A stretch of DNA of 64,000 bases from Raillietiella orientalis (lineage: Eukaryota). A program made the translations under genes and the position numbers. The notes beneath the pieces are model-generated. The model saw nothing but the letters and a program-made list of their open reading frames with translations. It searched no databases and was not told where the DNA came from. Shown here one piece after another: positions 1 through 35,647 of this stretch. The stretch lies in assembly GCA_036172245.1 (NCBI GenBank), contig JAYWIR010000003.1, positions 1 through 64,000 of the forward strand, in the 5' to 3' direction. Each line of letters opens with the position of its first letter. The stretch's first letter is position 1.

Positions 1-24
1 TGCCCCGGCGTGACCGGGTGAGAA
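1..24 (+). mobile_element. 3' terminus of a further copy of the L1/Tx1-like element (rest lies upstream of the window)
   Basis: TGCCCCGG-CGTGA-CCGGG-TGAGAA matches the 3' terminal hairpin read on the minus strand at 10429-10452 (TGCCCCGG-CACAT-CCGGG-TGTGAA). Similarity to the copy at 5582+ only begins at about position 25. Confidence 0.65.
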
Positions 25-1973: not shown

Positions 1974-2188
1974 TTCACCCGGATTTCGCCGGGGGGTTCA
2001 TTGTAAAATAAACTTTTACAAAGACGTGCAGTGGCTGGACCATTGCTCCAGCCACGCACGAAGAAACACAGAGCCTGCCGGGTCACCGGTTCGCAGACCG
2101 GTACGGTCCACCACGCAGCAGGGGGAAGGGGGAAAAACAAAAAACAAAACAAAAAAGAAAAGAAAAGTTGCGAGGGTAAGGGAAGGGA

Positions 2189-5769: not shown

Positions 5770-5783
5770 TACTGCTGGGAAGA

Positions 5784-7444: not shown

Positions 7445-7551
7445 CGCTGCCTGATCGACCACCGAACCACACGACGCTTGCACTGGGGGAGACTTCCTGG
7501 CACGAGGAGCACCGAGAAAACACGTCCGCCCTAGAGAGCACAAGGCGGTCG

Positions 7552-9495: not shown

Positions 9496-10431
9496 GCTTC
9501 GGTCCTTTTCCTTCGGCGTCTCATCCTTTCTCGCGCCTGACGGAACGGAAATTTTTGGTTCGGGCACATCCGCCTGATGTGCCCCTTCTCCCCACAGCCC
9601 AAGCACACGATGTTGAAGCATTTCTTTTTTAAATGCCCCGACACCTGGCAAAAGCCGCAGTAAACGAGTTTCCCCACATACCACAGGTCGATCTCCTCCT
9701 TTCCGACCTGCAGTCTGTGGGGTAGCTCACCCTCGGCTCGGACGGTCAAGCGGGCAGCGGCATAACCATTGAATGCTTTAATGTAACCCAATATATTGGG
9801 TTTTGCCCACAACGCGTGGACCGTCCCGAACTTCTCCAAACTTTTGCGAACGGCGGTCTTAGCCATTCTCATCGTAATACCGGTGAGGTGGACAACGATG
9901 GAGTTGTCCGCCGTGAACGGGAAGATCCTTCGACCGTTCACGGTCACCGGCAGGCGGAACAGCTGCTGAGCCATCCCTGCAGACTTGCAGTTCAGCTCAA
10001 CCAGCTGCCCGCCACTCCTAACCGAAAGTCCGAGGACTTCGTCCTCCGGGACTTTAAATTTTTTGAACTCGGCCGCGAAAGACCGTAATAACGCGGGGGA
10101 GTACAGGCCACCTACCTTGTATAACAAGGCCGGGTTATACCCGTCGGCCATGTAAGCCCGCTGTTCCTCTGCAGGGGGCGGCGCAGGCGCCGCCACCACC
10201 GCGCTCCAAGCCCTCGCCGGGGCGGGGGACGATTCCGTGGGGGAGATGGCCCCCACATCCATGGGCTGGGGAGACGAGGCTCGCTCGCCCCCCTCCGCCG
10301 TCTTTGCGGCGTCCTCGGGCATCTCTGCCCAGGAACAACCGCTCACAGCTGAAAACCCCGAAAACACTCGCGAGAAAAACGCGGAGCACCACAAAAGCAC
10401 GTCCACCCTCTCAAGAGCGCCGTCGCAATTC
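9496..10431 (-). mobile_element. Copy 4: 5' UTR + N-terminal ORF1 (diverged subfamily), 3'-truncated
   Basis: ATG at 10322 (MPEDAAK), RAWSAVVAAP, GYNPALLYKVG, knuckles CGFCQVSGHLKKKC and CLGCGEKGHIRRMC. GGACGTG at 10398-10404. Confidence 0.88.
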
Positions 10432-12783
10432 ACACCCGGATGTGCCGGGGCATTTATTTGTTGGAAATAAAAATACATGAAATATCGCGTGGCGAACTCG
10501 AAGGTTCACCACTCCAAAACAGCTTGCTGGTTACCGGCTCCATGCCGGAGAGGTCCTTCCGATGCGCGGGGATGGGAAATAAAGAAAAACAAAAAGAAAC
10601 AAAAAGTTCAAATGTGGGCAGGGAACAAATGTTGTAGGGGTGGGAGGGCCGGGAAGGGATCACGGTGCGCGTGGAAAGGTCCTCTAGATCCTATTCAGGA
10701 TCCGCACAAGCTGAGTCCTTTCAGCGCCCAAGTGGCGCCACTTGCAGACACTGCGCGCGAAAAGGCGAGTCCAGTGTAAGGCGTTGCCGGTTGGCTAGCG
10801 CCTTCTTCTGGTGGCGTTCCAAGCCGCCACTATTCCTCTGATGCAGCAGAGGACTGCTACACTAGCGGGCGGGGACAAGGCGTCACTACAGAAGAGGCGC
10901 CTGAAAACGTCCTTTGGGCCGCATCCGCGCAAGTCCAGGATCGCCGCGAGACGATCCCACAAAGGGCGGAGGGCGCTACACTCAAGGAGAAGGTGGGGGA
11001 ATGTTTCTTTTTCCCCACACCGGTCACAATTGGGATCCACAGCCCCCCGGGTGGTGTGGTGCAGGCGTGCTTTGAATGGTAATCCCCAGAGTACCACAAG
11101 CAACGCCACATCCTGCCATTTCAGGGGGAGGGATGCACTGTTCCAGGACGCTGGGGGCCACTTCATCTCCTCCGGAGATAGTCCGAGTAGCTCACCCCAG
11201 CGTCGAAATCCGTTGGGCGGGACGCTCGGCGTCGCAGCGTGAGCTAGCTGCCGAGATGTCCACGCCTTTATCGATTGTGTCCTACCGCCTATAGTGCAGG
11301 ACACGGTCCATTTCCCCTGCTCGCTACTGTCCCTGGCATTCACAAAGAAGGGCAGCACTGGGGCAAGGGGGGTTATCAAGGCCCACAGAAGCTTGTCGTG
11401 GGACTGCACGATCTCCTGCAGCGTCCAGCGGGCGTGCCTTTTCATACAAGTGTTCCTTGTGCCCGCCGGAACGTGGATCTTTTCCCAGGTGGAGACTGAC
11501 TCGTGCAACCAGGCGGAGTAGTTCCCTGGGAGGCAGGAGATCCAGGCGTTCTCCCGGACCGCAACGAAGATGCGTCGCAGCATAGAGCCACAGTATGGTC
11601 TTCTGCAGACGCGCGCAGACAGAAACGACAAAAGTCCGCCGATTCCGCAGGCTCGTTTGGCCAGGAGGCGTGCTGGAACGCACCAAGGCGTGTCCCACAA
11701 TTCCGCCACAAGGGCAAGAGTCCTGAATCCCAGCTGTAGTTCCATGCGCTCCAGCGTAAGTACGCCAAGTCCACCGTCCTTACGTGGAGCGCACAAGTCT
11801 TTGAGCCTCACACGGGACCTCCCTTTGCCCCAAAGGACTGTCCTCAGGAGGCCCGCTGCTCGTTTCCGAATAAAATAAGGGGCGGGGCAAACAAAAAGTA
11901 GGGGGCGAAGGAGGGGAGCCGCAAACGCGTTCCGCACCGCGGCCCGTTCCTGCAAGTAGAACTTGCCTTCTTGGAACGGTCCGATCGCCAACGCTGCCTT
12001 TTGGAGACGGTCGGACCAGGCTTCTGCTGCGCAGAAGTCCCCCAACGGTACGCCGAGGTACTTGAAGCACCTGCCCGTGGGGATCCCCAAGCAGAGCGCT
12101 GTCGCGAGTCCGCAAGAGAGGCGCGCGACTTTATCGATCGGATGCGCGCGCCTCCACATCGCGTGCACTGTGGCGAACGCCTCCAGTGCAACAATGATGT
12201 CGCGGTCCGTTATTCTCGGCCGAATTCCCGAGAGCTGGACCACGAACGATTGATCCAGGGCCGAGGGGACGACCTCCTTACCCCTGATTTTCTGGGGGGT
12301 TCGCAGTAGGCGCTGGACGAGGGCTGCATCCTTGGAGTGCACCTCCCAATGGCCTACCGCGCTCACTGGCATAATTGCCAGGAGATCGTCCTCTCGGACC
12401 CCTACGCGTTCCAGCTCGCTCCAGAGCTGGTTGCCCGTCCCATCCCGGTACGCGGCACTGACCTTGTAGGCCAGAGGGGGGTTGTAGCCGCTCTCGGCGT
12501 ACGCCCGCAGCTCTGCCTCGTCGGGTGGGGCTCCGTGAGCCGCCGCTGCCTTAGCAACGGCGGCAAAACTTCTCGCTGGAGGCGAAGAACGATCGGTGGA
12601 GGCTTCCACTCCTCCCGAAGAAGGTCCTGCGACGCAGGGGGATTCCTCCACCTCCATTTCTGCGGGCACTAGCTTCATTTTCCTTTGAAAATTGATACCA
12701 CACCCAGAAAACACAACCGCAAAGAAGCACCAAAGACGGAGCGCAAGAATGCACGTCCGAACAATAGAGGGGGGCGTCTAATG
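10432..12783 (-). mobile_element. Copy 5: internally deleted element retaining both ends
   Basis: 5' leader with GGACGTG (12752-12758), ORF1 N-half joined at ~12097 to post-YADD ORF2, and a complete structured 3' UTR (10432-10662). Confidence 0.85.
10795..12678 (-). CDS. Chimeric open frame: ORF1 N-terminal domain fused in frame to the ORF2 thumb/C-terminal finger region
   Basis: ATG at 12678 (MKLVPAEM). ORF1-like GYNPPLAYKV...GLATA is followed directly by LCLGIPTGRCFKYLG...GGLG...CDRCGEKETFPHLLLEC. No knuckles, APE or YADD. Expression unknown. Confidence 0.5.
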   Translation of the reverse strand: MKLVPAEMEVEESPCVAGPSSGGVEASTDRSSPPARSFAAVAKAAAAHGAPPDEAELRAYAESGYNPPLAYKVSAAYRDGTGNQLWSELERVGVREDDLLAIMPVSAVGHWEVHSKDAALVQRLLRTPQKIRGKEVVPSALDQSFVVQLSGIRPRITDRDIIVALEAFATVHAMWRRAHPIDKVARLSCGLATALCLGIPTGRCFKYLGVPLGDFCAAEAWSDRLQKAALAIGPFQEGKFYLQERAAVRNAFAAPLLRPLLFVCPAPYFIRKRAAGLLRTVLWGKGRSRVRLKDLCAPRKDGGLGVLTLERMELQLGFRTLALVAELWDTPWCVPARLLAKRACGIGGLLSFLSARVCRRPYCGSMLRRIFVAVRENAWISCLPGNYSAWLHESVSTWEKIHVPAGTRNTCMKRHARWTLQEIVQSHDKLLWALITPLAPVLPFFVNARDSSEQGKWTVSCTIGGRTQSIKAWTSRQLAHAATPSVPPNGFRRWGELLGLSPEEMKWPPASWNSASLPLKWQDVALLVVLWGLPFKARLHHTTRGAVDPNCDRCGEKETFPHLLLECSALRPLWDRLAAILDLRGCGPKDVFRRLFCSDALSPPASVAVLCCIRGIVAAWNATRRRR

Positions 12784-13227
12784 GTCAGACAGCTCCGACG
12801 CAACTTTTCCCCGTTTGCCGACCCGTGAACACAGGTCGACATCCAGGAAGACGTGGTCGATGCTCCTGACCATTTCCGAAGGATCCTCTAACAAGTTGTG
12901 CGTGCGCATGGCAGCGCACAACTCGTTAGCCGTCCGTTCCTGTGCGTGTGGCTCACCTGATAGCAGGCGGAGATTAAAGTACCTCAGAGCCGGTCGCGTG
13001 CCTCGCGGCGCACGTGGCTGTTTTTTTTTTTAAACATTAAACACTATTTTGTTTCCACGCCCCTCCGCCCGCGGCAACCCGCAGGGGGACGTGTAATTCT
13101 TCAGGATAGGGGGCAACCCGGGATGGGGGTCCGCCCTATGAATCCAGGAAGGGCTCGGAGTCCGTTCCTCTCACGCTTGAGGAGGGATTCCCCCGGACGG
13201 GGGGAATCGCACCTCCCACCCTGGTTG

Positions 13228-13460
13228 TCTCCGAAGGGGAACCCCGAAGGGAATCTCCTTCCTCATTCTCTCCGGAGGGACACCCCCCACCAATGGGGAG
13301 GGGCTGTCCTCTCCATTTCAACTTCATTTCAACTTCTCCGAAGGGAACCCGGAAAGGATCCGCTTGTAGGAATTTCTTCTCCTGAGGGAACCCGCAAGGG
13401 AACCGCTCCTTTATTCACTCCTCTGAAGAGAACCCCGAAGGGACGCTTCCGAAACTCAGA
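13228..13460 (+). repeat. Degenerate ~41-43 bp tandem repeat of small hairpins
   Basis: Units like TCTCCGAAGGGAACCCCGAAGGGA start at ~13228, 13269, 13335, 13378 and 13419. Confidence 0.65.
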
Positions 13461-13754
13461 AGGGGCGCTGCAGCTTCCCGCAGGAAATCGCTCTCGCTTC
13501 CTTGTGCACTCTGTGAAGAGGTGACGACTCGGAGGGTCCCCCGGTGGGGGGGGGTCCGCTCTCCGTTGCAGGACAGGAGGGGGGGACTCCCCACTCCTTG
13601 ATTCCTGGGAGGACCCAAAGGTCGACTCCCATTGTTCCGGCCTCATCGGGGGCCTCCGGCTTAATCCACCTCCGGTGCCACGCCCGAATGTCTCGGCCAA
13701 CTAGCGCCATTGCAGGAGAAACTCGGAACTCAACAACGCAGTGGCGTCAGAGTT

Positions 13755-13826
13755 TCTGCCGAAGTATTCGAACCCGCGACGCATGGTGCCACACGCGGAA
13801 GCCTTAACCACAAGGCCTCCGACGCG
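13755..13826 (-). other. tRNA-derived (SINE-head-like) sequence, not a functional tRNA
   Basis: A-box/D-arm GGCCTTGTGGTTAAGGC (GCCT/AGGC pair) and B-box GGTTCGAATAC at tRNA-like spacing; anticodon and acceptor stems do not pair. Confidence 0.55.
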
Positions 13827-16286
13827 GGAGCCGCCGCTGCCTTAGCAACGGAGATTAAAGTCTCCCGCTATCAGGTGAGCCACGCGCACGTTCGCTTCCA
13901 CCAGCCAGTCGCGCTTCAGAGTTTCCAGGAACGCCTTACGTTTTTGGTACCTGGTAGGACCGCTCGGAGCGTACACATTTGTTACGACGAGGTCGATCGT
14001 GTCGGACCACCTGAGAGTCAGCTGGCCGACACGACCGGCTTCGTCGAAGCGCACGCCCTTCACGGCTGCGTCGACTGCCGGCTTCATAAAAAACGGGACG
14101 CCGAAGGTGTATCGGGTGCCGCATTGTCACATTAGCCGTCCCCCTGCGATCCTTTCGATCTCCTGGGCGTTCTCCCCGGTGATCACGTGGATCTCCTGCA
14201 GGAGTGCCAGGTCGAAGTCACGCAGGGTGGCTGCCGTGTCCCGTCTGTTGCTGTCGTCGCGCAGCCCGTGGACGTTCCAACATGCCACACGCAATCGACG
14301 GCGACAGGCGAGCCCAGGTGTTATTCCCGGGAAAGTGGCAATGGGGCTCCCGCCACCTGGTCGGGCGGGACGGATGGAGGAATGGGATCACCGCGCACCG
14401 GTTCTCCCTCCTCCATGGGGGCCGATTCCTCGGCGGACCGAAACGGTTGAAGGGGGCGGGTTTCACGCACCTGCTCCCCCTATTCCATGGGGGCTGATTC
14501 GTCGGCTGCGCTGGACGGCAGGAAGGAGCGGTTGTCAGCTGTCTGCTACCCCTCCTCCATGGCTATCTCCTGAGCAGGTTCCACCGTTGGGTGGGGGCGG
14601 CAATCACTCACCTTATCCCCCTCCTCCATGGGGGTCGCCAGCTGCTCGGTAGCAAAGGGTGGGAAAATCCCTCCCTCCGTTCCCACGCTGCCGGCTTCCC
14701 CCTCGGATGCCGGTGCGTCCCCCTCCTTCTTTGTCGGGATGCGCCTCTTTGGATTTTTGGACTTCCGTCCAGTCTTCTTCGGAGGCGCCTCCGCGGAGGA
14801 GGACGCACTTCCGGCATCCGGTTCGTGGTCACCTGTCGGAGGTGCCTTGCTCGCGGCCGGCCTTCGCAAGGCCTTTCGCGCGCCGTTCTCACGCTCCGCG
14901 AGTTCGGCCGCGAGCTCTTCCGCCGCCTGCTGGAAGGCGGCGTCCTCGATTGCGGCGAGCGCGTCGCTCGGCTCCTTCTCTGTTTGCACAGAAGGTTCGC
15001 CTTCCTCGATCGCGGCTTCGGCGTCAACGAGGCGGGAGATATCTCCCCCGGTGGAGGTCTCGGGGATCTCCACGCGCTCCAAAGCGACCGAACATTCGCG
15101 GAGCAAAGCGCGGCGTTGTCTTCTTTTTAAAGAAGTTGTCGCGGGTTCCGCTGTCGGTTCTTCGGTTTTTCTGCTTTTTTTACTTTTCGGCTTCGCTGTC
15201 CGCCAGTCCTCGTTGTCACCAGCGTCGTCGGGAGTTTTCTCGACCGCCGTTTGCTGGGAGCATTCGGACTCTGGCTTTTTGCTTGGCCATTCCTTTGCTT
15301 CTTTTGGCTTGCTTGTTTTCTCCAAGCGTTTCCCCTTACCTTTTTCCAAGGCAGAGGGCGCTGGAGGTTCCCGCTTTGGGCACACTTTTCGGAGGTAGCC
15401 CTTCTCTCCGCAGTGGAAACACTGGATGTGAGGGCACCGTTTTTTCAGGTGCCCTGTGGCATCACAGTGTCCACAGTACTTGGGCTTGCCCACGTACCAG
15501 ACGTCGACGACCTCGTTGCCTACGTCGAGTTTGTGGGGCAGCCCACCGTTTTTGTGGACCGTCACACGCGCTGCAGCCATGCCACTGAACAGTCTTCCGT
15601 ATGTTTGGAAGACGTTGGGCTTGGTCCAGAGCGCGTGCACCGTACCATGTTTTTGCAATTCTTCCTGCACGCCAGCTTTTGTCATGCGCAGAGTTACACC
15701 GGTTAGGTGTGCAACAATGGAGCGGTCCTCCGTTACAGGGAAGACCTTTCGGCCTTCCAGAGTGATGAGAGTGTTCAGCAGGCGTTGAGCCAGACTTGCA
15801 ATTTTTCAAGTCAGCTCCACCCGCTGGCCCCCACTCATCACGGAGAGACCTTCCAGGTCTTCCTCTTTCACATCCAACCGCTGTAACTCTCTTTCAAAGT
15901 TACGAGCGGTGTTCCCCACAAACAGATTTCCTACCTTGTAAATCAAGGACGGCTTGTATCCTTGTTCAAGGTAGGCGCGCTGTTCTGCTAAGGCTGCAGG
16001 AGATGGCGCTGCAGCCACTGAGCTCCAGGTCTTCGTCGTTGCCGAGGAAGGATCCAAAGACGCGGTTGCCCCCTTTTTCAAGAGGGCGGTTGCTCTCTCC
16101 TCCATGGGGACGGTTGCCCCCACCTCAATAGGTTGGGGAGAGGAGCAATCCTCTCCCCCGCCGACTTCCATCGCGGTGTCCTCAGGCATTTCTGCCATTG
16201 GACACCGCAGATGCTCCACACACAAACACTACCGAAAAAGAACGCTTTACAACAGGCGCAGAGGAGCGCGGAAAAAACACGTCCGC

Positions 16287-18625
16287 ACGCCAAGTTGATA
16301 GCTAAGGTTTGGGCTGAGCGTTTGGGACGGGTTGCAAACGCCTTCCTCAGCCCGGAACAGACGTATGCTGTTCCGGGGCGAAGCATGGAGGCGAATCTGT
16401 TCCACGCTTCCACCTGGCTAGAACTCCAACACGAAAGGGGCTTGGTGTGCAGCCGGAATTCCGGTGCGTGCGCCGGCAAGGTGTGGGATGGTCGGGTGGG
16501 GAAGGGAGCCCTTGCGGTCGCAATCGACTTGCGGAAAGCATTCGACAGCGTCGACCAGAATCCCCTGCTGGAGCTTTTGGAACGCTTGGGCTTCACGGCC
16601 TCATTATTGTCCTATCTGCGCTCCAGCTGGCGCGATTCGCTAATCAATCTTACTTTCAGCGGGCAGACTGTTCACGGCGTGCCGGTCCGACGTGGGATAC
16701 GGCAGGGAGACAGTCTGAGCCCCTTGCTGTTCAGTACCTACTTCGAGTTGGTACTGAGAGCGTACAAGGAAACTCTGGCGCACCTGCCGCACGAATGCGC
16801 CGGAACGCCTGCGGTTTCAGCATATGCGGACGACCTTCTGCTGCTGCTCCCTATGTCCACCCCGGCTTCGGCGGTCGAGAAGTTCTTCGACCTGCTGAAT
16901 CGAGGAACCGGACTTACGGTGAACAGGGCGAAGTCGTCCGTGATGCCAGTTGTTGCGGCGCGGGCAGGGCAGCAGGACTGGGTCCGTTTGGGGATCTCCA
17001 CGGTGAGGTACTTCAAGTACCTTGGTGTGCCGTTGGGGGACTGCTTCCCTGCGGAAGCTTGGTCCGGCTGCCTCCAAAAAGTAGTGACAGCTATCGGCCC
17101 GTTCCGAGGCGGCAGGTTTTTCCTGCCTGAACGGGCCGCGGTTTGGAACATGTTCGCGGCTCCTCTCCTCCGTTCACTGCTTTTTGTTTGCACCCTTACA
17201 AATAGGATAAAAAAGCTGACGAAGGACCTCCTCCGTATCGCCCTTTGGGGCAAAGGGAGGGCCCGAGTCCGCTTAAAGGACTTGTGCGCTCCGCGTCGGG
17301 ACGGTGGTCTCGGCCTCCTGACATTGGAGCGGCTGGAGCTGCAGCTCCAGTTCCGGATTTTGACACTTGTGCCGGAGTTGTGGTGCACCTGTTGGTGCGT
17401 CCCTGCACGTCTCCTCCTTTAGCAAGCCACCGGCAAGACGGAACTTACGTCCTTTCTTGCACTTCGTCGCCGCGTCAACCGATGCGGACTCCAGCTACGG
17501 AGGGTGGCTGCGCTGACACGGAAAAACTACGGATTGATCACCTTTCGCCCTGCGAACGGTAGTTTCTGGTTGCAGGAAACCGTCCGCACGTGGGGACAGT
17601 TCGGCATGCAACGCTCCCAACAGGAACGAAGGTTCTTGTTTGGGGGTTACAGAAGTTGCACGCTCCGTGAGATCCTGGAGGATCCAAAGAAGAGAGCGTG
17701 GTCAGGAAGAACCCCCCTCGCTGCTGCGCTGGACTCCCTAGTGGAACATCAGGACAGCGATGTTGCGGCGAAGTGGGAGGTTACAGTGACAATCTCCGGG
17801 AAGGAGAAGAAGATAGGAGAGTGGAAGATGGGTCAGCTGACTGACGCTGCCAGCCCGAGTACGCCTCCCCATGGACTTCTCCGCTGGGGCGCGCTGCTCG
17901 ACGTTCCCATTGAACGTCTGAAGTGGCCCCCGGTACTTATGAACACCTCCACCCTCCCCTTAAAATGGAAGGAGTCCGCTCTCCTGTTGCAGCACTGGGG
18001 ACTCCCCTGCAACGCCCGCCGACACCACTGTACCTGGGGAGCGGTGGATCCCAATTGTGTTAGGTTTGGGGAACGGGAGTCCCTCCCCCACCTGCTTGTG
18101 GATTGTGTTGCCCTTAGGACCCTTTGGTTCCGCTTTGCAGCGGCCATCGTAATCCCCTGCGGCAATCCCAGGGACGCTCTCAAAGCCCTCTTCGTTGCCG
18201 ACGCCCTTCGGCCAGCGGCCTCGTTAGCAGCCCTGTGCTGCCTACGCGGAATCGTCGCCGCCTGGAGCAAGGCTACGGGAGGACCACGCGACAAGGGTGC
18301 CATCCAGCCAGCCTCCGAATTCTTGAGGAGGGCGTTGAGATGGCCCCACATGGATCCCGGAATGCAGAAAGAGCTTGCCGGCATCCTGCGAAGGATGCAA
18401 CGGCCCCACCAGCTACAGTGATCCCTTCCCGCACCATTCCACGTTTTCTTTTGTTTTTTGTTTTATTTGTTCCCCTTCCCCCTGCTGCCGTGGTGGACCG
18501 TACCGGTCTGAGAACCGGTGACCCAGCAGGCTCTGTGTTGTTTCTTTGGGCGTGGCTGGATCAATGGTCCAGCCATAGTGCATGTAAAGAGTTTACTTTT
18601 AAATAAATTCCCCAGCGACCAAGGT
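16287..18625 (+). mobile_element. 5'-truncated copy 7 (RT to 3' end), close to the copy 2 ORF2
   Basis: AKLIAKVWAERL, KAFDSVD, GIRQGDSLSPLLF, YADD, FKYLG, GGLG. TAG at 17420-17422, stop at 18421, then 3' UTR hairpins and AATAAA at 18602. Confidence 0.92.
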
Positions 18626-20470: not shown

Positions 20471-23400
20471 TTAGGAGATTGGAGACGAAGTTTGCCTCGT
20501 ATTGCCAAACTTGACAAATTTGTCATGTAGATGCATCAAATGCTCCACGATTATTTCATCAATTTCCTTTCCTCGAGTCTGACTTTCCGAATTTAACTTA
20601 AGCCATTTTAAACCTACATCAGATATTAATAAAACTTCTGTGTATCTATGTTGGAGAAGATTGCCAATAACCACCTAAAAAAACATAAGTGAATTTAGTG
20701 GATACTCATTAAAAGCACATAATCACCTGTGGTCTGTATTTTGCCAATGCATCTTTGCATTTGCATTCAAGTTTATTACGATCTGTCTCCAACTTAAATG
20801 ACACTACAAAAGCTTTTGGTGTCCACAAGGAACTCAGCATGCCCAGCATTTTTGGAACAGGTTGCAAAATTAATTGCAAGGTATTTTCCTTAGAGTGAAG
20901 CTTGTGTTCAGACTAAATCAAACGAATTGATTTACATGTTCACTAAAACACACCAGCTGATGCAGAGGAATATAGAAATCTGACACTGCAGCAGCCAAGT
21001 ACCACAGTACCCACGGGCTGTTCGCTTCCGGACGTTCTGCTACCAGTTTTAAGAGCCAGAGGTAATCCGTTACAGTGACAAAAGTTATTGTGAGGAGTAA
21101 ATTGACTTGTTCTATAGCATCAATCTCTTGGGCTACACATATGGCATCCTTCTGACCTGAATTTTGATATTGAGTATTTTATTGAATAAACATTTTCAAC
21201 TACTTATGATATCCTAAAAGCAAATCCCACTTTACAAACTTTCTATTTTAGAACAAGATATCTAATTTCCTAAGGAAAAAAGTTGGCCTTGTATTTCATG
21301 ACTCATTTTCCCAATAGGAAATATGCTTCAAATCTTGAGATTTTGGGGGCCGAGGGATCAGAGTTAAGTCGAGAGTCTGTCTCTCTGTTATTCCAATCAC
21401 AAAAAAGGAGCCAGCTATGGAGCAATACTGATAGACAGTGTGACGCAGTTTTGTGTTACTTGTATATTCCCAACAACACAATAGGCACTGAAAGGACTGC
21501 ACTTAGTGCCTACTTAGTATCTTGTGAATGGATGTTGTAAAGTGTTTTCTAAAAGTCCTACAGCCATGCCGAAAATATCTCACATCCCAAGTTTCAAAAG
21601 TCTGGTTCTTTTAGAAAAGAGATGATATCTTTTCATGTACCTCGTAGTTCCCAAAAGAATTAATCCCTACCAATTCTTGTTTTCCAGATCAGTAGAAATT
21701 TATTTGATTGATCTATTATTAGATCAATGCAAATAAATTTTGTTTGTCTTTCGGGAACCAGTAAGATCCATAACAAAAATATGGATTCTTCATACTTTAT
21801 TTTGAAAGTGGAAATATTATGCTACACTTGATTTCACAGATGTTACAGATGATTGCTTCCAGCAAATGACTGCAAATTCTTTTGATTTTTAAAACTATGG
21901 AGACAATGTATTGTTTTTCTTTCAAAATAAGTTTCAAATTTCGATTCAATTTCGTTTCAAATTGCATTTTTTGCATATTCACTTTCATGTTTTCATGTGT
22001 TTAATTTCATGAAGTTGTGGTCAGAAACTATTTCTTAACCCATTGCCAATTCGACAGTGTGGAATTAAGAATGCATCACGGAGAGATGATCCGATAACTT
22101 CATTAAATCCTGCATTTTTCATGTGACATTACTCCTTTTAATTATTTTACATTTTAAAACTTGTCTTTCACAATTCACATGTTCTCACATCACAAAAAAG
22201 TACACTGTGATAAAGGCACATTGCAGACTGAATAAAAGTCATTATTTCCTAATACCAAATATATCATTAAGCTACCTACATCAATGTTGCAATAAATCAA
22301 TGTAAACATTTCAGGTGACTGAAAGTCAGCTAACTTTAGTTTATTTCCAACTTGCAAGATAACACAGTCTCCTAAATTGACAAAAACAAACAAAACATGA
22401 GTAGTTGACAGAACTCAGGATTGTTTGCCAGCATCCATTATTACTAGAAAAAAGATTGGACTAATAATAGAACTATATTGCAAAAATTCGCAGTCTAGTA
22501 AAGCTAATGAGATATCAGTTGACTATGCAAACAAAAACTTTCTTTCTAAAGATTTCTGTTCAAGCATCTGTGAAGTACATACTCTTATTCATCACTCTGG
22601 TGCAAATAAAAGTGATGAGACTAAAGAAACTTTCTGGCAGAAACTATTGAGTTTCTGCCAGAAAGCGCTTCTGAAATACATAGAAACAGTTTCTGTACAA
22701 GTACTTTTAAATCTTCCACATATATTACAAGTGTTGCATGCATGCTTTCCAAGAGATAAGTGAGTAGAATAAAAGTAGACTTCATAGATAGCTCACTTTT
22801 CACAGGAATCATGCAAAACCAAATGGAAAATTCACGGAAATGTAAATTATCAGCAACATTACTAGATTCTTATCAGCAACTGATTTCATTAATGCAATCA
22901 TACTGGAATCTGTGGAACTACTTTTTTTACGCTTATTTTGGACTGAACACTTAGTAGGTTATTATCTTGGAATATCTGAAAGGAGTTCCATAAGATTCTA
23001 ATTGGCACTATTCATAAGCAGTATGAATCTTTAATCAGATATAGGTACTTTAAACAGAATAAATGACTAACCAGTACTAAGAGATTCCTTCTCTTGTTTT
23101 CTCAATAAAAAAGGCAATAACTGTTCCACCTGCAACTTCCGCACAAAGGGCTTTTGACTTCCTTCTTTGTAAAGGTACAGCACTGCATAATTATTTTTTA
23201 AAAAGTATTCTGCAGATGCAGCTCCTCTTCTCCCAGTACTAAAGTTGACTAAAAAATGCACAGGATTCTTCTCCAATGGAACTGAAGTACCTCCAGACTA
23301 TTACATTAACATATAAGAACCCCACAGAATTTAAAGCATCAAATTATGTGATCAGTATGCATTTCAAATTGATCTTTCATTCCATAAGATACGATAATGC

Positions 23401-24265
23401 GAAAGAAAAATTTAATAAGAGTACTCTTTTATGTGACATTTTAAAATTGCAAAAGTTATCAAGGCACCGTTACCACTTTAAAAAAAATTTTGATTTGTTC
23501 ACGATAAAAATTAATAAATCGTTTAAGCTCTTAACTGCAACTAGATGAAACTAACTAAAAGTGACAAAAAGTTAAAATGTACTCGTTAAAACAAACCAGA
23601 AATAACGTAATCATGGCAATACATTTATCTGCTTGAAAACAATTTCAGTATTTTCTTTCTACCATCCAAGATCAAGAGGTAAAAAAGGGCAAACTGGAAT
23701 AGAAAACACGATTCATGCTTTCAAACGACTGGAGAATAATATCAGCAAAACATGCATACAATCCTAACTGCAATGTCAAAGGGCACTGTTCCTGCAAAAC
23801 GAACTTCCAAAATGCCATCGGTACTTTTTTAGACCTATGAAAACATTAATTACCTTCGCATAATTTCTAAATTGTAATACGTGCTTTATTTGCATACCCG
23901 TGCACAAAGTTAACGAGTTTCCAACAGATCTGTAATAATGCTAATCAGAAAAAAAGTTAATTTCGGTATCTTACATTTGCAAAAGATACATCAAAGATAC
24001 TAAGAATAACTGCGTTTTGTGCCGTTTGCCATCACAGAATTCAGATCAAAACACTCAAATAAGCATACATACGGTGATAATGACAAGTTTCCTTTTTTGA
24101 TAATGAAATTCAAGAAATCTTTTAATTTTTTCCATGCTGCCTTCATGAATGTTAAGAGTTGTATTTGCAAAGAACTGGTCACATTCTCGTTCCTTAGATA
24201 GGTGTTCCTACTCCAAAAAAAAAAATATAAACGCTAAATAAACGAAGAAAAAAAACAACCTCCAT
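20471..24265 (-). CDS. PPCS: Phosphopantothenate-cysteine ligase, 6 coding exons, 319 aa
   Basis: Exons 24265-24260, 24207-24073, 23297-23072, 21156-20954, 20912-20727, 20674-20471; all GT-AG and phase-consistent. Motifs [56 protein letters not shown]. The 6-nt first exon is the least certain part. Confidence 0.92.
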
Positions 24266-24649
24266 GAAACTGTGGGACTTCAGGGAGACACAAAAGACAG
24301 ATTTCTTGCACTCAGCGCTAGACGAAAACTTTCCGTCACCTAACATTCATTACCAAAACACGAGAGATTTTTTCTTTCCTGGTCCAGCCAGTGAACACCA
24401 AACATCAACAGACCAAACATCCATTCAGAGATAAGACCAATTTCGTAGAATTCAAGTGTATTTGATGTGCATAATGTCACGCAAACGTCCTGCAATTTCA
24501 ACGCTCCAATTGTTTTGCAGTCCAACTTTTACCACTACTGTCCGAGGTGGGGTAAAGTGTCGGGAAATTGGAACAAACGGGAAACACAAGCAAAAGAGCG
24601 TTGCTCACCTCCGTGTTCGTCGCACGGGTTCTTTCGTGTCGCAGCACAC

Positions 24650-25560
24650 GAGGTTTCCTATCAGGAATTTGTCTTAGAGGGGATTGGGCATGGGCGGACA
24701 GATTCCTGGATCTTTCTCAGGATGTAGTGGTAGGTCCACGAGGGCACTCTCCCACATCTGTGAATGCCGATCTCCTTTTCTAAAAACCCCATCAGGATGT
24801 AGATGGCGACCGCTGATATTATTCTCCGAAGAGTAGCCCTCCTTACGAGAACAACTGAGGGCACAACTGAGGGGTGGAACTTTGGCTTGTTTCCTCTCTT
24901 TCCATGAGTTCTCCCAGCTATTCGAACTTGGTAGTGCTTTGCAAGTCGGTCGCTTGCCTTGGCATTCTCTGGTCGCTGGTGAGGACTGGCAGTGAAGATG
25001 TGGTGGATGTTCTCCGAATCTGCACACTCTGCACAAAGCTCATCACTGTGATTACCTCACCAGTGCACCTTCCTGGTACCACAAAGAAGCCCTCTGTGAT
25101 AACACATGAGGAGTTTATCTTGGACCTCTGGGGATAGGCCAGATCTCCTCAGTGTGATCTTTATAGAAGGAAGATTGAGCCCAGGATTTTGTAGAATGCT
25201 ATTCCAGATGCTATTCCAAAGCTCGTAGGTTGACCTCGATGTAGTTCGAGTTGCGTCTTTGCATAGCTCATACACAGCCCATGGACTGGGTGAAGTACTG
25301 GTATACTCATCCTACATGAGCAATCGCATCGCGATGCGGTTTCCGGGCATCATCTCTGCAAGATACGAAGCGAAGAGAAAACGCAACAGTAAGGAATCCA
25401 TTGACTTCGCAGTATGCTTTCTGCTGATCGCAACGAGATGGACCCACCTGGGACCACATCAGGAGTAGCTTACTGACGTCCTGCATAGGCTGCAGAGGAC
25501 CCATGGACGAAACGGATAATGATCTCTTCCGTTGCTCCCTAGCCACAAGAACACTTGTTC
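24650..25560 (-). mobile_element. Decayed LINE ORF2 C-terminal fragment
   Basis: CYHRGLLCG...LCAECADSENIHHIF resembles the C-terminal finger of the young copies; many stops; boundaries approximate. Confidence 0.55.
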
Positions 25561-25589
25561 TTATGGCTTGGAGGAATAGATGGGATGGA

Positions 25590-26750
25590 AAGTGTTTGTT
25601 TGTTTGTTTGTTTGTCTTCTTTCCCTATTCCCCTTCGTTCCGTTTGAGGACCTTGTTGGCACCTTCTAAAGAATTATTCGACTCAGAGGAATGTAATATC
25701 CTAACATTTTTTCTTGCATGTTTGTTTTTAAAATAAACTCTGACGTGACCGAGTAAAAGTCTTCTCTGAGGTCAGCAAGATGGTGACTGCATCTCACTAG
25801 AGAGAAACAGGCCAAAATTAGCAATGTCCTGATGCGCTCCGTGGGAGATACTGTCGCGGCGACACTTCCTACTCCGAGCTAAAACCGGAAAGTCCAATGG
25901 CTCACGCAGCAACCCAGAGAACTATTGCCAGACTGCAGAAAGCGGAGACCAGATGCCGAGGATATCAACGAGATAGAAATGCCCCATCTTCGGATACCGG
26001 AATGATTCAGGTGGGTCCTCGGGAATCGTCGACTGAGAGGATCCTCTCCTTCGGGCTAAGAACCAAGGTGAAAGCGGGCGACAAGAGAGTCCATCCGCCC
26101 CCTTTTTTCCCCTTTCCACCCATGAGTCTCCCACCTGACCCTCGAGAGGAGTTGAGAGGTCTTCCTTCCAGAATAACTGCGGGAAATCGGCATTTGGCAT
26201 CGCCTGCACGTGGTCTGCGTGAATATCAACGGGCTACGCAACAACGTTAGGAAGACGAGATGTAAGCATCGCCTTCCGATCCTTCAAGCTGGTGCTCCTC
26301 CAAGATGTCCACAGGATCCCTACGGTAGAGCTTTCCGAGATCTATCACCCAGCCACTCTAGGACGTTCATTCTTGAGAGCAAAGAGTTGTCAATGAAAAA
26401 CCTTCAAGGGTACGTACTTCAAAACCTTCATTCAAGTCGGTCTTTTCTAAGATCCGGGAAGGGTGGAATGGAATAATAAAAGACAGGAGAGCAAAACAGA
26501 GATCTTTGTTTTCACTTGGTCCCACGCGTAATTGCGATCCTCCACGAGCCAGCTCTGGCGAGAGGAATGTTCTCTTCGACGAAGCAGATCCAGTAGCACA
26601 ACTTGTTGTTAAGTCGTCCGAATCCGTCGACGTCGTCGTCACGAAGATAATCGCGAAGTTGATTGACATGGACCACTTGAAAACATGCTGACTCACCCGA
26701 CAGTTCCTATAAAAGCGAACGCTCACCACTGCGTCCGCGATCTGGGGTCA
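25590..26750 (+). mobile_element. Decayed LINE 3' UTR/terminus followed by a decayed APE fragment
   Basis: (GTTT)n/T-rich tract, AATAAA at 25732, then CGTGACCGAGTAAAA resembling the terminus at 9-24. Further on, LHVVCVNINGL and VLFDEADPVAQLVVKSSESVDVVVTKI align with the APE of copies 2 and 6. Confidence 0.6.
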
Positions 26751-26914
26751 TTCCAGTAATGCGCTTTAGCAGGAGCGTACCAAACTGCTGCATGTCAAAG
26801 CAATTGTTTTCTTAAATACTGTTTTAATTCATTAAAAAAGATTGAAATCATTTACAGACATTCTGAGGTTGTGGTTGTTGTTGGTGGTCAACGAAAGAGT
26901 GTTCTTGACAAAGC

Positions 26915-27271
26915 ATGGCTCGTACAAAGCAGACGGCTCGCAAGAGTGCTCCAGCCACAGGAGGCGTGAAGAAGCCTCACTGCTACCGGCCAGGTACTGT
27001 CGCCTTGCGAGAGATCCGTCGTTACCAGAAGAGCACCGAGCTGCTGATCCGCAAGCTGCCTTTCCATCGTTTGATACGCGAGATAGCTCAAGATTTCAAG
27101 ACGGACTTGCGGTTCCAAAGCTCGGCCGTGTGGGCTATGCAAGAGGCTAGAGAGGCTCACTTGGTCGACCTCTTCGAAGACACAAACCTTTGTGCCATCC
27201 ACGCCAAGTGCGTGACCATCATGCCGAAAGACGTCCAGCTGGCTCGTCGCATCCGCGGTGAGCGTGCTTAA
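26915..27271 (+). CDS. H3: Divergent intronless histone H3 with an 18-aa N-tail deletion (variant or young pseudogene)
   Basis: [22 protein letters not shown]...IRGERA, 118 aa, open frame; ten substitutions relative to canonical H3. Confidence 0.8.
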
Positions 27272-27904
27272 GCCTGAGCAGAAGTGAACCGACGAAGCTA
27301 GAGTTGGGATAGAAACAAAACCAATAATAGAAATAAAACAAACTTAAAGAATTCTCAAGAGTAACATTCACTTACTGTTACTTCTTTCTTATTTTTAAGT
27401 TCACTTACAAGGCAACTGTTTTGAAAACTTCTTTTGTCAAGATAGCTGCAACTGTATGTTTCCATTCACCCACTTGTATCTTGAATTGGCTTACTTATTT
27501 ATTCTACTAAACCATTGGATCATAATATTATTCGCTTTTGGTTCTATTACAAGTAAAAGTAACATTATTCTACTAATGGAAAAAATATTCATCATATTCT
27601 ACTAATTTTGTTTGATGAGAAAACAATTTTCATCATTGAAAGAACTTTGAAATGCTAACATTCCTAATTTGACTTATTTTTAAATGAGTAGACAGAGACA
27701 TCCATAGCATTAATAGTTACATTTACTATCTGAAAAGCTTTGAATACGATTTCTTACTTATGCTTGTTTCAAAAAGCTTTGAGAAGTTGACCAAAACTTC
27801 CTCTTCCCTTGTTTGGAGCACATTACAAGAAGTAGTAATATCACTTTTCTGCTTTATGCAGCAATATATTCACTTGTACCTCTAGTTGCTCGAGAAAGTT
27901 GTTG

Positions 27905-27964
27905 AATGAGAGACGGAAGTTCAGAGGTGCTTGCCGTCAGAGAGGGATTGTCATCATCGTAAGC
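27905..27964 (+). promoter_or_regulatory. Possible promoter / non-coding first exon for the TMEM134-like gene
   Basis: ETS-type CGGAAGT at ~27914 in a locally GC-richer patch ending in a donor-like GTAAGC at ~27959; inference only. Confidence 0.3.
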
Positions 27965-28983
27965 ATGATTTATATTTCTAGAAAATTAGTTGGAATTTTT
28001 TATGTGCACAATTCTTTAGCAATATGCATATTTGAGAAGAGAGAATAAGCTAAATTTTTCATAAAAGGTTTTTTTACATTATCGTAGCACTTTGGTATAT
28101 TATCGTAGCAATTTAGTGACTTCCCGAAATAAAGAAGATGCAGGTTATGTATATCAAGAAAACTTTTGGTGGATGCTAGTAGTATAATTTCAAACAGTAT
28201 GAACTTTTGCATACTCACAACAAGAAAAAGAAATGAAAGAAAAGCAAAAGAAGTGAGTAAAAGGAATGTTTTGAGAATTTACAACTATCTGGTGCATCAT
28301 AGCAATCAGAAACATATTCTTCAAAACCTTTGTTGATTAACTCAATAGAAATGTAAACTGTTAAAAGATCTTTTCTTATTTTTGAAGATGCCTACAATGC
28401 CATCCTAAGCACCCCGGAAACATTGCAAAGCATTATCAACGTCCGTAATACTAATCCTATACGAATAATTTTATTGATTTTAGGCCTGGTAAGCCTTACT
28501 TTTCATTAATTGAATTGTGTAGCAGCAAATAGCGTTTGTTTCGTTTTGTGCTTTTTTTTCATGAAATTAGAACGTAGTAATTTTGGTTCTTTCGTGTTTA
28601 CTTGTTTAGCAATTTGAAATCCTCCAGCCAAAGAAAAAATACCTGTTGAGCCAAAAGAGTAGCTGTTATTCAACGTTACAAAATTGAATTAATTATAAAC
28701 AAACAGAAGTCGGTGGCTTTTATGAAAATCAGAATAGAGTATAAATCATAGCTTAAAGAATGTGAATATAATTTGAAAAAAAAAAAAAAAAATTACAACT
28801 ATGATCAATCTTGTAGCAATTGAGACTTTTATCTTCTTGGTGTGTGGTAAGTAATTGCCACAGAAATAATCAGAGAGGTGTTTTGTTTTTCAAGTCATGT
28901 TATTGAAGTGTATTTTGTAGAAATTTTATATAATTTGGAGGCACTGAAATTTGACGTGCTTAATATGATTTCTTTGAAGAAAC

Positions 28984-29902
28984 ATGTGCTTTATTAAAAG
29001 GAGTATTTTGGTGAATGATATAATGGTGGATGGAAATTTAAGTTGTATTGATGAGCCATGTGAAGATAATTCTGATGATTTAATTAGTACATCACGAAGT
29101 ACAGTTGATAAACTGTCATCCTTGCCTCCCATTTACACTGTAATGCAGAGCAATCACCCATCTCATGAACAGAGCACTGAATCATCAATTGTCAAAGTAT
29201 CTGAAGAGGTGAAAGATCTTTTCCTATGAATATTATTAAATTGTTTTACTTTTTTCGTGTAACATATCTTGTTGTTTTAAGTAAATAATGGCGCATAAAA
29301 AGTTATAAACACTATCGGATTCTGCAATAAATTTACTAGTAAAGTACATTCATTATGTTTATTTTTTTTTAAAATAAGTCTTTTAGCTGCTTAACTACAC
29401 TTAACTTTTGCTTGTACTCTAGTGCTCCTTAGTAATGTTTGCATGTTTTATTCAAGGTTATCCATAACTAAACAGTTGTATAGCATTACTTATGCAATTT
29501 TGAAACAATTCAATTAATAACAACTCAATTCATGTGCAGACTGGGTCCAGAGATAATGATTCATTACTTCAGACAGAAAGATGCCAGGTTAAAAATCTTC
29601 ACACAAGTTGGTGGCATCATCCCAAGGTGCAAGACAACTGGAAAGTTGTACTAGCGGCATTTATTCTTCTCATTATAGGAACAGGTTTAATATTTGTAAT
29701 ATTGAAAGCCTTAGCTTTGCTTTAAGGGCTCTTAGTGACTGGAGTGGTGGTTGCTGCAACCTCAGGAGGACTGCAGAGTTTTGTTTTTCTAATAGCTGGG
29801 GCAATATGCTTCATACCAGGTGCATATCATGTTGTATACATCTATCTAGCAGTCAAAGGAAGAAGAGGATATGATTTTTATAATTTGCCAGTTTTTAACT
29901 AA
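28984..29902 (+). CDS. TMEM134: Transmembrane protein 134-like
   Basis: Exons 28984 (or 29023)-29208, 29540-29684, 29727-29902. WWHHPKVQDNWKVVLAAFILL, two hydrophobic segments, FIPGAYHVVYIYLAVKGRRGYDFYNLPVFN. Start codon uncertain. Confidence 0.85.
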
Positions 29903-32587: not shown

Positions 32588-35500
32588 ATGAGTAAGAGTC
32601 GAAGACCGGAATACCAGGCACCTCCTGACATGGTAATATGCTTTATGCTCTCCCAAAAGAGACTCCCTGTTCTTAGGAGTCAAATTTTGCAAATTTTATC
32701 GTCATGCTGTGATTTCAATCCATTATCCTTCGCGCGGAGCTTGCATAGTTATCCTTTTTTGTAAATGAATGTATCTAAAGTCGGAGGATCCATAAACAGA
32801 AGTGTAATTTGATGGGTGTGAGCCTTGTTCCCTCTGAGTATGTTTGCTTATCTCAATGTTTCTTATGAATTTCAATTAAAATAATTGCAAGTTTCCCACA
32901 CCGTCTTATGTAATGTATGATTCAAATCCCATTGCCATATTGAAAACTCTGTTGAATATGGGTTCTCAAGTTTAAAAAAAGTGTTAAAATTTGATAGGAC
33001 GAAAAGTGATGCATGATACAATTCAAAAGGTTCCATTAGAGTTCTGAACTTTCAACCTGATGTCCATAGTCCACGCATTTCAAGTCATTTTGTAAATGAG
33101 TGTTGATGCGAACTGCAAATTAATTAATTTACTTTTTAATGGCGTCTTTTTCTTATGGTAATAATAATATAGTATTTACTATATTATTATAAACTTTTGT
33201 AATTAAAATATTACAAAAAGATTGCAAGATATTATGTATTAATCATTGATCTGGTAATTCTTTACGGTTGCTATCGAATGCATCGTGGTTGCAGTTTTTG
33301 CTAACTTGTAACTGACTGCTTGTTTTGTACTATTTTTACTTGGAGCATTAAATACAAGTTGGTATGTGTTTTAGTTTTACAGTGAAGAAGAAGCCTTGAA
33401 GTATACAAAAAAGTAAGTTTTTATAAATAGTAGCAAATAACTTCCAACAGTTTAATATAACTCTCTGTTTTCATATTTTTTGTCATAACTTCTCCCGTTA
33501 TTAATCACTGAGGTATGGTGAAATCTTAAATTATTTTGCAAATGTGTAGCATTATCATACTAATATGGTATTTATTTGTAATGTTGATTTCTAAGTAAAG
33601 GTGAAACATTAGGATTCCTTTCGATGATCCAAAAATTTCCCTTAAAGAGTCTCCTGTTATAATCTTTCCTTGTTTTTCATTTGTGTACTTCATTTTGAGA
33701 TCTTGTTTCTGTTCTTTATAGTGCTTATTTCATTTTTTCCTTAAAAAGTTTTTTTGGGGATAGATAATCATTTAAAAAAGGGCTTCTAGTATTTGAATCC
33801 ATGGTTCCAGCAGTATTGATAATGTAACAGATTGTAGTTATGCAAAAAATTCAAGTGCTTTGGAATTGTGAATTCGAATTCAGGAATATAAGAACTGCAC
33901 TTGTGAAATATAGCTAGCACTCTAGTATTTTTTGATTTACTTATTCTATCTTGCAAATATACCCAAAAATGGTTTACTCTAGGTCTGCCCTTACTAAACA
34001 TCAAGTTGTAATTTGAATATATCGAACTGTATGATCATGGTGGCAGCTGCTATATTGCTATTTGTTGCCAATTTTGTAGGAACAAGTTTCAGGAAAGATT
34101 TGTTTATAATTTGTAAAATATCCATCTTATTTTAATGGTTGATAAGAACATGTGTTGAAATTGGTTTTCCTTTGTAAGAAAACAGAATTTTTTGTTTCCA
34201 TTATACTGCAAAGGAAATTTTTGTTACATAGAAGGATTTTCAGTAGACATGTTGCAGAGAACATGAAACTACACTTCATAAATTCTTGAAGCATCTAAAG
34301 TGATATGGATAATCAATGTCATCATCAGTAATAGTGCAGTTTTTTTTATGGTTATTATCGTACAGTTTAACAATCATTTCAATACTGTCGATATGTAATA
34401 AATAATGTAGTTGATGAGAATTCTTATCTATTGTATTCGTTTTTATGGTTGCATATAATTTGTACTTCAAGATTTTAATCAGAAATGCTTATTGACTGAC
34501 TACATTAACAGTTGAACTGAACATTATGTGTTTGCATGTGTGTCGCTCAAATACAGTAAAATTCTTGTTGCATTCTTAAAACTAGCGAGGTAAATATAAG
34601 TATGAATAAGATTGTTTCATTTTCAAAGGCTTATAAAATCCTGTAATCGCATTTTGTTTCACAGTATCATTTTCTTTGTTAAAATTACCTAAGATATAAG
34701 TTTCTATGCATGCATTGATAGTTTATTTTTGTTAAAAAAAAAAATGATCATTTTAGTTCTCGAATAATTGATATACAAATATCTTTGTCTGAACGTGCTA
34801 TAGAGCTGTTGGCTTTACCTGATGAACACTCTTGTTTAATATTGGATCTGGGTTGTGGATCTGGATTATCTGGTGATACTTTATTTGAGCATGGACACTT
34901 TTGGGTAGGAATGGACATCTCACAAGCCATGCTGAGTATGTCTAATTTTATTTTGATTAGTAAAATTGAAATTTTGTGCAGAAGTGGCTAAAGACAGAGA
35001 AGTGGATGGAGATTTATTGCTCTCTGATTTAGGAGATGGTGTTCCCTTTCGTGCAGGTGCATTTGATGGTGCTATTAGCATATCTGCATTGCAGTGGCTT
35101 TGCAATGCCGATAAGTTTTCACACAATCCTGTCAAAAGACTGTATAAATTTTTTAGCAGTCTTTATGCTTCTTTGGTAAGCTACTTTTCATTTTGCATGA
35201 AACACTGATTCCCTTAGGCAAGAGGAAGCAGAGCTGTGTTACAATTTTATCCTGAGAATTCAGAACAGGTTGAACTGATTACTCAGCAGGCTATGAGGGC
35301 CGGTTTTGGTGGTGGCCTGGTCATCGATTATCCTAATTCCGCTAAAGCAAAAAAAGTTTTTCTTGTGCTTCTGACAGGTGGACCTGAGGAGCTTCCCAAA
35401 GCTCTTGGAAGTGAAACCACCACCTCCAATATTAAGAAAATGAAATCGAAAAGGTAGTTTTATTTTTGTTTGAATTAATTAATAATTATACATTGCTAGA

Positions 35501-35647
35501 GAAAAAATGAGAACTGCGAGAAATAAACCTTTAAAGAAGAGTAGAGAGTGGATTTTGGAAAAAAAAGAGCGGAGAAGAAGACAGGGTAAGGAAGTAAGAC
35601 CTGACTCACAGTACACTGGAAGAAGAAGAAGTGGCAAATTTTGGTGA
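32588..35647 (+). CDS. BUD23: 18S rRNA guanine-N7 methyltransferase (BUD23/WBSCR22), 6 exons, 279 aa
   Basis: Exons 32588-32632, 33375-33412, 34757-34935, 34982-35175, 35218-35453, 35500-35647; GT-AG and phase-consistent. [12 protein letters not shown] motif [40 protein letters not shown]. Confidence 0.95.

Follow-up and report, generated by a model that had tools for sequence, protein, structure and literature searches.

An intact open reading frame (ORF) for an H3-like protein of 118 amino acids was found on the forward strand of the window, the term used here for the whole 64-kb stretch of DNA that was analysed. The frame runs from ATG to TAA with no internal stop or frameshift, and its product matches the core-histone profile of Pfam (Histone, PF00125) with an E-value of 1.2e-40 and a score of 139 bits. 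When the product was compared with PDB chains using phmmer, its residues 6–118 could be aligned with residues 24–136 of H3.2 without a gap (E about 1e-63), and its first 11 residues were matched separately to the H3 N-terminus. The ORF call, the Pfam match and the alignment agree that the protein is an H3 from which mature residues 11–28 have been lost exactly and in frame (18 residues, 54 nt), as had been proposed in a sequence-only reading of this DNA. At the junction A29-P30 follows directly upon the K9-site ARKS, which is the only ARKS left; the separate K9 and K27 ARKS sites are absent, as are K14, K18 and K23. The junction codons and the alignment thus bear out the same reading's claim that the K9 ARKS is fused to the K27 context with loss of these three lysines. 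The codon table also shows residues of the canonical type, namely A31, S87, A88 and V89, and the H3.3 signature is missing, with A31, S87, V89 and W90 standing in place of S31 and A87/I89/G90. The presence of A31 and of S87-A88-V89, already taken as signs of a canonical H3 origin in the earlier reading, points to an ancestor of the canonical rather than of the H3.3 type. The features of the locus and its surroundings are collected in Table 1.

Table 1. Features of the H3 locus, of its neighbours in the window and of the related metagenome locus (positions in the window unless stated otherwise).
Feature	Position	Strand	Remarks
PPCS exon	23070–23297	-	E 3e-14 to solved PPCS chains
GC-richer upstream block	24450–26790	.	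GC 0.41–0.55; decayed LINE ORF2-like fragments in both orientations
TATAAAAG motif, candidate promoter element	26708–26715	+	207 nt upstream of the ATG
Candidate 5'-UTR intron, GTAATG...TTACAG	26756–26857	+	102 nt; speculative, from sequence only
GC-richer leader, presumed 5' UTR	26858–26914	+	57 nt before the ATG; in-frame TGA at 26906–26908
H3-like ORF	26915–27271	+	ATG to TAA, 118 aa
Deletion junction, GCT CGC AAG AGT / GCT CCA	26936–26953	+	K9-site ARKS joined to A29-P30; alignment and codon table
R40C codon, TGC	26981–26983	+	DNA-contact residue of the alpha-N helix; Cys in 0/260 H3 sequences
Alpha-2 segment with M90W, L92M, S96R, Y99H and G102D	27131–27169	+	Five replacements; alignment and codon table
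R116C codon, TGC	27209–27211	+	SIN-mutation DNA contact near the dyad; Cys in 2/262 sequences
Proximal 3' flank, still GC-richer	27272–27309	+	First 25 nt shared, with mismatches, by another H3 copy in run X1
A-rich tract	27310–27349	+	26 A in 40 nt; AATAAA at 27332–27337 inside
TMEM230/134 exon	29504–29722	+	
BUD23 (18S rRNA guanine-N7 methyltransferase)	about 34750–35641	+	Three introns of about 42–50 nt
Degenerate histone repeat unit, metagenome contig L040	1–2097 (of the contig)		H3-like, H4-like and H2B-like ORFs

Two ordinary animal genes, PPCS and TMEM230/134, flank the H3 copy, which forms the right end of a GC-richer island of about 24.45–27.30 kb. This island lies in the AT-rich part of the window, at 18–36 kb, where GC ranges between 0.31 and 0.46 and the CpG observed/expected ratio between 0.42 and 0.56; the parts at 1–18 kb and 36–64 kb have a GC of 0.52–0.67 and a CpG ratio of 0.93. 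The LINE ORF2-like fragments of the upstream block (24994–25206 on the reverse and 25346–25504 on the forward strand) are weak matches with E about 3e-5, and no Pfam family was found in the ORFs of the block, which is transposon debris and not a histone partner of the H3 copy. When 24000–28000 was compared with the whole window, no repeat came up at E-values up to 1e-3. Searches by tblastn with H3, H4-like and H2B-like queries detected no further gene of these three histones in the 64 kb, which upholds for them the earlier statement that no other histone gene lies nearby.

Several other parts of the window deserve a mention. The best named relatives of the BUD23 exon are spiders in eight of the top 10 rows, followed by mites, with identities of 66–81%, from which the organism was judged to be an animal and probably a chelicerate of a poorly sampled group; introns of about 42–50 nt, as in this gene, are unusual for an animal with spiders and mites as its closest named relatives for BUD23. 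One GC-rich family of non-LTR retroelements (GC about 0.60) is present at positions 1–18600 in four or more copies or fragments, which lie in both orientations. It has zinc-knuckle gag-like ORFs, a zf-RVT tail and ORFs for endonuclease/reverse transcriptase (RT) that reach 693 aa; the domains RVT_1 and zf-RVT were found. The closest relative of the 693-aa RT ORF is one unnamed metagenome protein (67% identity), and the next match is at 27%. The retroelement array is undepleted in CpG (observed/expected 0.93), unlike the AT-rich DNA of the host, and the only visible retroelement 3' end abutting AT-rich DNA, at about 18600, is without a poly(A) tail. The 28 kb at 36000–64000 contain many long open frames on both strands with translations rich in Arg, Pro and Ser, and no Pfam family was recognised in five frames that were tested. 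The sharp switch in GC from 0.34 at about 36 kb could be the border of a repeat island or an assembly join.

The flanks of the H3 copy were examined for the marks of either class of histone gene. A permissive Rfam scan of 25500–29000 (E up to 10) gave no match to the histone 3' stem-loop RF00032, and the same model was found twice, with E about 3e-7, in the metagenome locus L040, which served as a positive control. The lack of a histone stem-loop noticed earlier can thus be maintained. The AATAAA reported in an A-rich tract is present as well, 61 nt past the stop codon. Chance alone would place this hexamer within 100 nt in 14.5% of cases. The richness in A of the tract (26 of 40 nt) was reached by 52 of 14462 background windows, and the tract is not homopolymeric. 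The tract may be a polyadenylation region or, if the locus is a retrocopy, what is left of its poly(A) tail after decay. On the upstream side, the TATAAAAG 8-mer does not occur in the 14.5 kb of AT-rich background, where TATAAA is found 0.62 times per kb per strand. The candidate intron, of 102 nt, is twice as long as the three delimited introns of BUD23. The GC-richer block around the H3 ORF includes 57 nt ahead of the ATG, where it is immediately preceded by TTACAG, and about 38 nt past the stop; a sharp compositional edge is seen about 40 nt after the stop codon. A target-site duplication was not found around this block, the longest shared exact word being 8 nt, a length reached by 150 of 300 shuffles, and the best near-match, of 15 nt with two mismatches, lies in the wrong place, 58 nt past the A tract. 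Two readings fit these flank features, a small polyadenylated gene and a retrocopy made up of leader, coding sequence (CDS), short trailer and decayed A tail, and no single feature settles the choice.

Independent reads were found for the 3' part of the locus. In DNA run X1, one contig of 109 nt with a depth of 2 matches 27245–27353 without a mismatch, and a second contig with a depth of 4.1 matches 27245–27296 with four mismatches. On account of these four mismatches, the second contig is assigned to a sibling H3 copy that has the first 25 nt of the 3' flank in common with the window copy. Two more pieces from this run, of 45 and 37 nt, have 5–7 mismatches and depths of 42 and 19, and were taken as other H3 genes. 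The pieces from run X20 at the locus are only 21–41 nt long and have mismatches; they were taken as spurious. Runs X3 and X6 gave no match here, and the long contigs of X1 lie outside the locus. Half of the locus or more was covered by none of the runs, and none of those recorded as RNA contained 26700–27450, a result that bears on coverage and not on expression. The independent read support spans 27245–27353 only, and the junction lies outside this interval.

Besides the deletion, the protein differs from H3.2 by ten replacements: R40C, Q68H, V71I, M90W, L92M, S96R, Y99H, G102D, R116C and I124V. All ten had been listed in the sequence-only reading, and all were recovered in the alignment and the codon table. 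How unusual these residues are was estimated from a sample of about 266 H3-like proteins. The sample is biased towards canonical H3, since the representative library that fed it gave mostly canonical cores with odd N-terminal extensions. In this sample, seven of the ten replacement residues were unseen, namely C40 (0/260), H68, W90, M92, R96 and H99 (0/266 each) and D102 (0/265). The other three were rare: I71 was found in 2/266, C116 in 2/262 and V124 in 6/261 sequences. Q68, L92 and Y99 are invariant in all 266. With regard to the two DNA contacts, nucleosomes with R40A are described as partly unwrapped, and R40A as lethal together with rsc1-delta, in the accessible text of one study (PMC7308085), and R116H is given as a SIN allele in the accessible text of another (PMC2978337). 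The replacement pattern may well be the product of relaxed constraint, though a radically specialised variant could look alike.

It had also been noticed that five of the changes cluster in residues 90–102. The five are indeed there, but the cluster is marginal, as a scan statistic gave P = 0.049 with a window width chosen post hoc. From a parental Met codon, M90W would take two base substitutions. The open frame itself carries no weight for function: it stayed open in 56% of 20,000 neutral simulations, and a deletion from ARKS to ARKS is in frame by construction. In the same setting, 15 random substitutions lead to about 10 amino-acid changes. The CDS contains 29 CpG with an observed/expected ratio of 1.01, compared with 0.42–0.56 in the AT-rich flanks. 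That so many CpG have been kept in a CpG-depleted neighbourhood suggests that the H3 copy is young, or else unmethylated or otherwise protected. The earlier remark that the two Arg-to-Cys changes are consistent with CpG decay is weakly supported, as both Cys codons are TGC and fit a change from CGC, but there is no general loss of CpG from the CDS. Changes from Arg to Cys affect 2 of the 16 retained Arg positions of tail and core, which is too weak a signal to separate neutral from constrained evolution.

The deletion junction is not unique to this copy. The exact ORF protein was not found among about 15 billion sequences, and there was no self-match at 100%. The best identities, of 91–92%, belong to proteins with the same junction and with none of the ten replacements, and representative sequences reached at most 90%. 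None of the ten replacements occurs in any match of the ORF protein, which is weak evidence on orthologues as the relatives are poorly sampled. In all, four or more further H3 backbones carry the same junction: P0122, which is of the H3.2 type apart from the deletion; P0045 and P0123, of an L90/A96 type; P0044, of a C96 type; and L040. The four database proteins (4 of 409 in the comparison set) have 118 aa, or 147 aa in one with a spurious N-terminal extension, and are otherwise near-canonical H3. Their source contigs are 503–845 nt long and of unknown library type, and they could be real gene copies or by-products of reverse transcription or assembly.

In a further search, a codon-degenerate pattern for K-Q-T-A-R-K-S-A-P gave 53 matches in metagenome contigs. 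Chance explains 49 of them, and three stem from protist H3 genes of full length in which S/T-A-P follows K9 by nature. The remaining one, L040, is an H3 that carries the junction of the window copy. The H3-like ORF of L040 has 123 aa and is heavily diverged but still open; it carries an ARK(S/C)-APATGG junction and is followed by a stem-loop. The H4-like ORF, which is divergently oriented and has lost an internal part, also has a stem-loop after it, and a truncated H2B-like ORF lies beyond. Both stem-loops are of the RF00032 type; they score 32.5 and 32.2 bits and narrowly miss the gathering score of 34. All three ORFs of L040 are open over long stretches despite their heavy divergence.

The recurrence can be understood from the layout of H3 genes. 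In 10 full-length H3 genes from a viral-contig collection, all of which keep both ARK[S/T] sites, the two sites are 54 nt apart (57 in one) with 5–9 nt of exact identity in register; several of these genes are close relatives and none is from an animal, which makes the set a proxy. The two ARKS-coding stretches of an H3 gene would thus act as short in-frame direct repeats with a spacing of 54 nt. An event between such repeats, be it slippage, microhomology-mediated end joining or RT template switching, would lead to the exact loss of residues 11–28. Given that the junction recurs on varied backbones and that the ARKS repeats are spaced by 54 nt, the ARKS-to-ARKS deletion is best seen as a recurrent mutation, probably a microhomology event, and not as a unique design. 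A microhomology deletion between the ARK codons had been suggested before, and both the recurrence and the in-register repeats support it. The possibility that the 54 nt were spliced out of a retrocopied transcript as a cryptic mini-intron was also considered and set aside, as the recurrence favours microhomology.

Taken together, the ORF at 26915–27271 is probably a young orphan copy of a canonical-derived H3, possibly retroposed, that is no longer held by H3-type constraint. A single, dispersed gene of the canonical type would have left the histone cluster and lost its 3' stem-loop, and would now evolve free of the near-absolute constraint on H3 as a young orphan pseudogene that is still open and presumably has no function. 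The sequence-only reading had offered two outcomes, a novel short-tailed variant or a young orphan or retro-pseudogene. The choice has been narrowed towards the second of these without being closed. The replacements at invariant positions and at the DNA contacts R40 and R116 lean this way, and so do the location of the sole genomic relative with the same junction in a decayed cluster and the lack of an orthologue among the proteins searched. The absence of a stem-loop and of H3, H4 or H2B neighbours, and the precedent of truncated H3 genes without detected expression (see below), also speak for an orphan copy.

As to how such a copy would have arisen, retroposition takes up about half of this explanation and duplication or dispersal at the DNA level the other half. 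Retroposition is supported by the mRNA-sized, GC-richer block (57-nt leader, CDS and 38-nt trailer), which is directly followed by the A-rich tract. The decayed LINE fragments directly upstream and the RT ORFs of up to 693 aa in the window provide a LINE context. Against it, no target-site duplication was found, the longest shared word being 8 nt; a copy of an mRNA of the stem-loop type should have kept the stem-loop, which is absent here; and the only visible LINE 3' end in the window is without a poly(A) tail. Other observations count against an orphan copy of either origin. The ORF has no stop or frameshift. Its CpG ratio of 1.01 fits a very young copy or equally a germline-expressed, unmethylated gene. 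The TATAAAAG motif, the possible 5'-UTR intron and the AATAAA could together form a polyadenylated gene of the replacement type, and the cluster in alpha-2 might reflect directional selection on the surface that faces chaperones and H4.

The main alternative, held to be possible but clearly the less probable, is that the locus is an expressed, lineage-specific short-tailed H3 variant, encoded by a polyadenylated, replication-independent gene and carrying a single hybrid ARKS lysine. Its product would have the K9 context upstream and the K27 context downstream of this lysine and would be devoid of K14, K18 and K23. DNA contacts weakened by R40C and R116C, together with a remodelled alpha-2 surface (W90, M92, R96, H99 and D102), would give loose, unstable nucleosomes. 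The intact ORF would be in keeping with such a gene, but an open frame is expected by chance. The same holds for the TATAAAAG motif, the candidate acceptor TTACAG and the AATAAA, which could be read as a promoter element, the end of a 5'-UTR intron and a polyadenylation signal, but such motifs are short and common in AT-rich DNA, as the chance expectation of 14.5% for the AATAAA illustrates, and the candidate intron is twice the length of the delimited introns of the organism. An orphan site and a missing stem-loop are typical of replacement variants, the CpG ratio of 1.01 sets the CDS apart from its depleted flanks, and the clustering of replacements at 90–102 (P = 0.049) would agree with a specialised surface. 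Run X1 contains another H3 copy, at low depth, whose proximal 3' flank is similar, so a small family of such genes may exist. These points have to be weighed against changes at positions that are invariant in 266 of 266 sampled H3 and the seven residues unseen there, against the absence of any orthologue or look-alike with any of the ten changes, and against the occurrence of the same deletion in the dead cluster of L040.

A broader form of this alternative is considered improbable. It holds that the fusion of the K9 and K27 ARKS sites is a recurrent route to a distinct short-tailed class of H3, of which the window copy would be a working, polyadenylated orphan member. Its hybrid lysine could be read or written by the machineries of both K9 and K27, and R40C with R116C would make for open, weakly wrapped nucleosomes, for example in the germline.

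It is very unlikely that the orphan H3 copy is otherwise of full length and that its 54-nt deletion stems from faulty assembly or consensus calling, or represents a rare allele or a somatic change of the sequenced individual: the independent reads do cover 27245–27353 and not the junction, and, of the five other sequences with the junction, four are from contigs of 503–845 nt that are possible template-switch or assembly artefacts, but a clean in-frame loss of 54 nt between repeats of at most about 12 nt would be atypical of assembler collapse, the same deletion is present in L040, a contig of genomic type with a promoter region, stem-loops and neighbour genes, and the ten replacements mark a diverged copy whatever the status of the deletion.

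The locus can thus be regarded as an ordinary by-product of histone gene turnover which calls for no new biology, most likely a histone pseudogene or orphan copy, a known category. The most useful lesson is that the exact ARKS-to-ARKS junction recurs across H3 backbones. H3 forms of 118 aa are to be expected in metagenomes and transcriptomes as by-products of mutation or reverse transcription. Because this deletion recurs on at least four other backbones, both expression and conservation should be demanded before such a sequence is named an H3 variant. Should the locus prove to be a true variant, it would be a natural experiment on a lone lysine with the K9 context upstream and the K27 context downstream, and of interest to chromatin biologists.

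Compared with canonical H3.2 (PDB chains such as 1eqz_C and 1kx3_A), the window copy has the same fold, with residues 1–10 identical and agreement at 97 of 107 positions in the stretch A29–A135, and in both the coding region is without an intron. The copy differs by the lack of residues 11–28 and by the ten replacements, several of which are at invariant positions. Unlike a canonical replication-dependent H3 gene, it has no 3' stem-loop and lies outside a histone cluster. L040 shares with the copy an open ORF and the identical ARK(S/C)-APATGG junction. However, L040 is far more diverged, keeps its stem-loops and adjoins damaged H4-like and H2B-like ORFs. The two have no replacement residue in common; Q68, V71, L92 and S96 are changed in both, to different residues in each.

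Variants of H3, testis-type ones included, are able to destabilise nucleosomes. The window copy resembles H3.3 and the testis-type variants in its orphan location away from a cluster and in its possible polyadenylation signal. It differs from H3.3 in lacking the signature of that variant, given as S31 with A-I-G at positions 87, 89 and 90 in the accessible part of one report (PMC1484599). Dispersal as orphan genes is also described for the replacement variants of Oikopleura dioica in the text available from a second report (PMC3156773).

Shortened products of H3-family genes have been met before. The truncated H3 of Oikopleura dioica (H3sh) is called a likely pseudogene with undetectable expression in the available text (PMC3156773), and for his-69 of C. 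elegans, an N-terminally truncated H3, mRNA was not detected according to the portion of the source at hand (PMC1484599). Both are like the window copy in being H3-family genes with a shortened product, but no fusion from ARKS to ARKS is described for either in the accessible text of these two papers. A full-text literature search likewise returned no description of an ARKS-to-ARKS tail-deleted H3.

The last comparison is with the processed pseudogenes, or retropseudogenes, made by LINEs, which have been reviewed (PMC5470649); the same review describes template switching at chance similarity for LTR-mediated retrocopies. In contrast to processed pseudogenes, the window copy has no detected target-site duplication, no clear homopolymeric tail and no disabling mutation, and the stem-loop of its parent is absent. 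It is nevertheless like them in being a dispersed single copy, made up of an mRNA-sized block followed by an A-rich tract, in a window where LINEs with RT ORFs are present.
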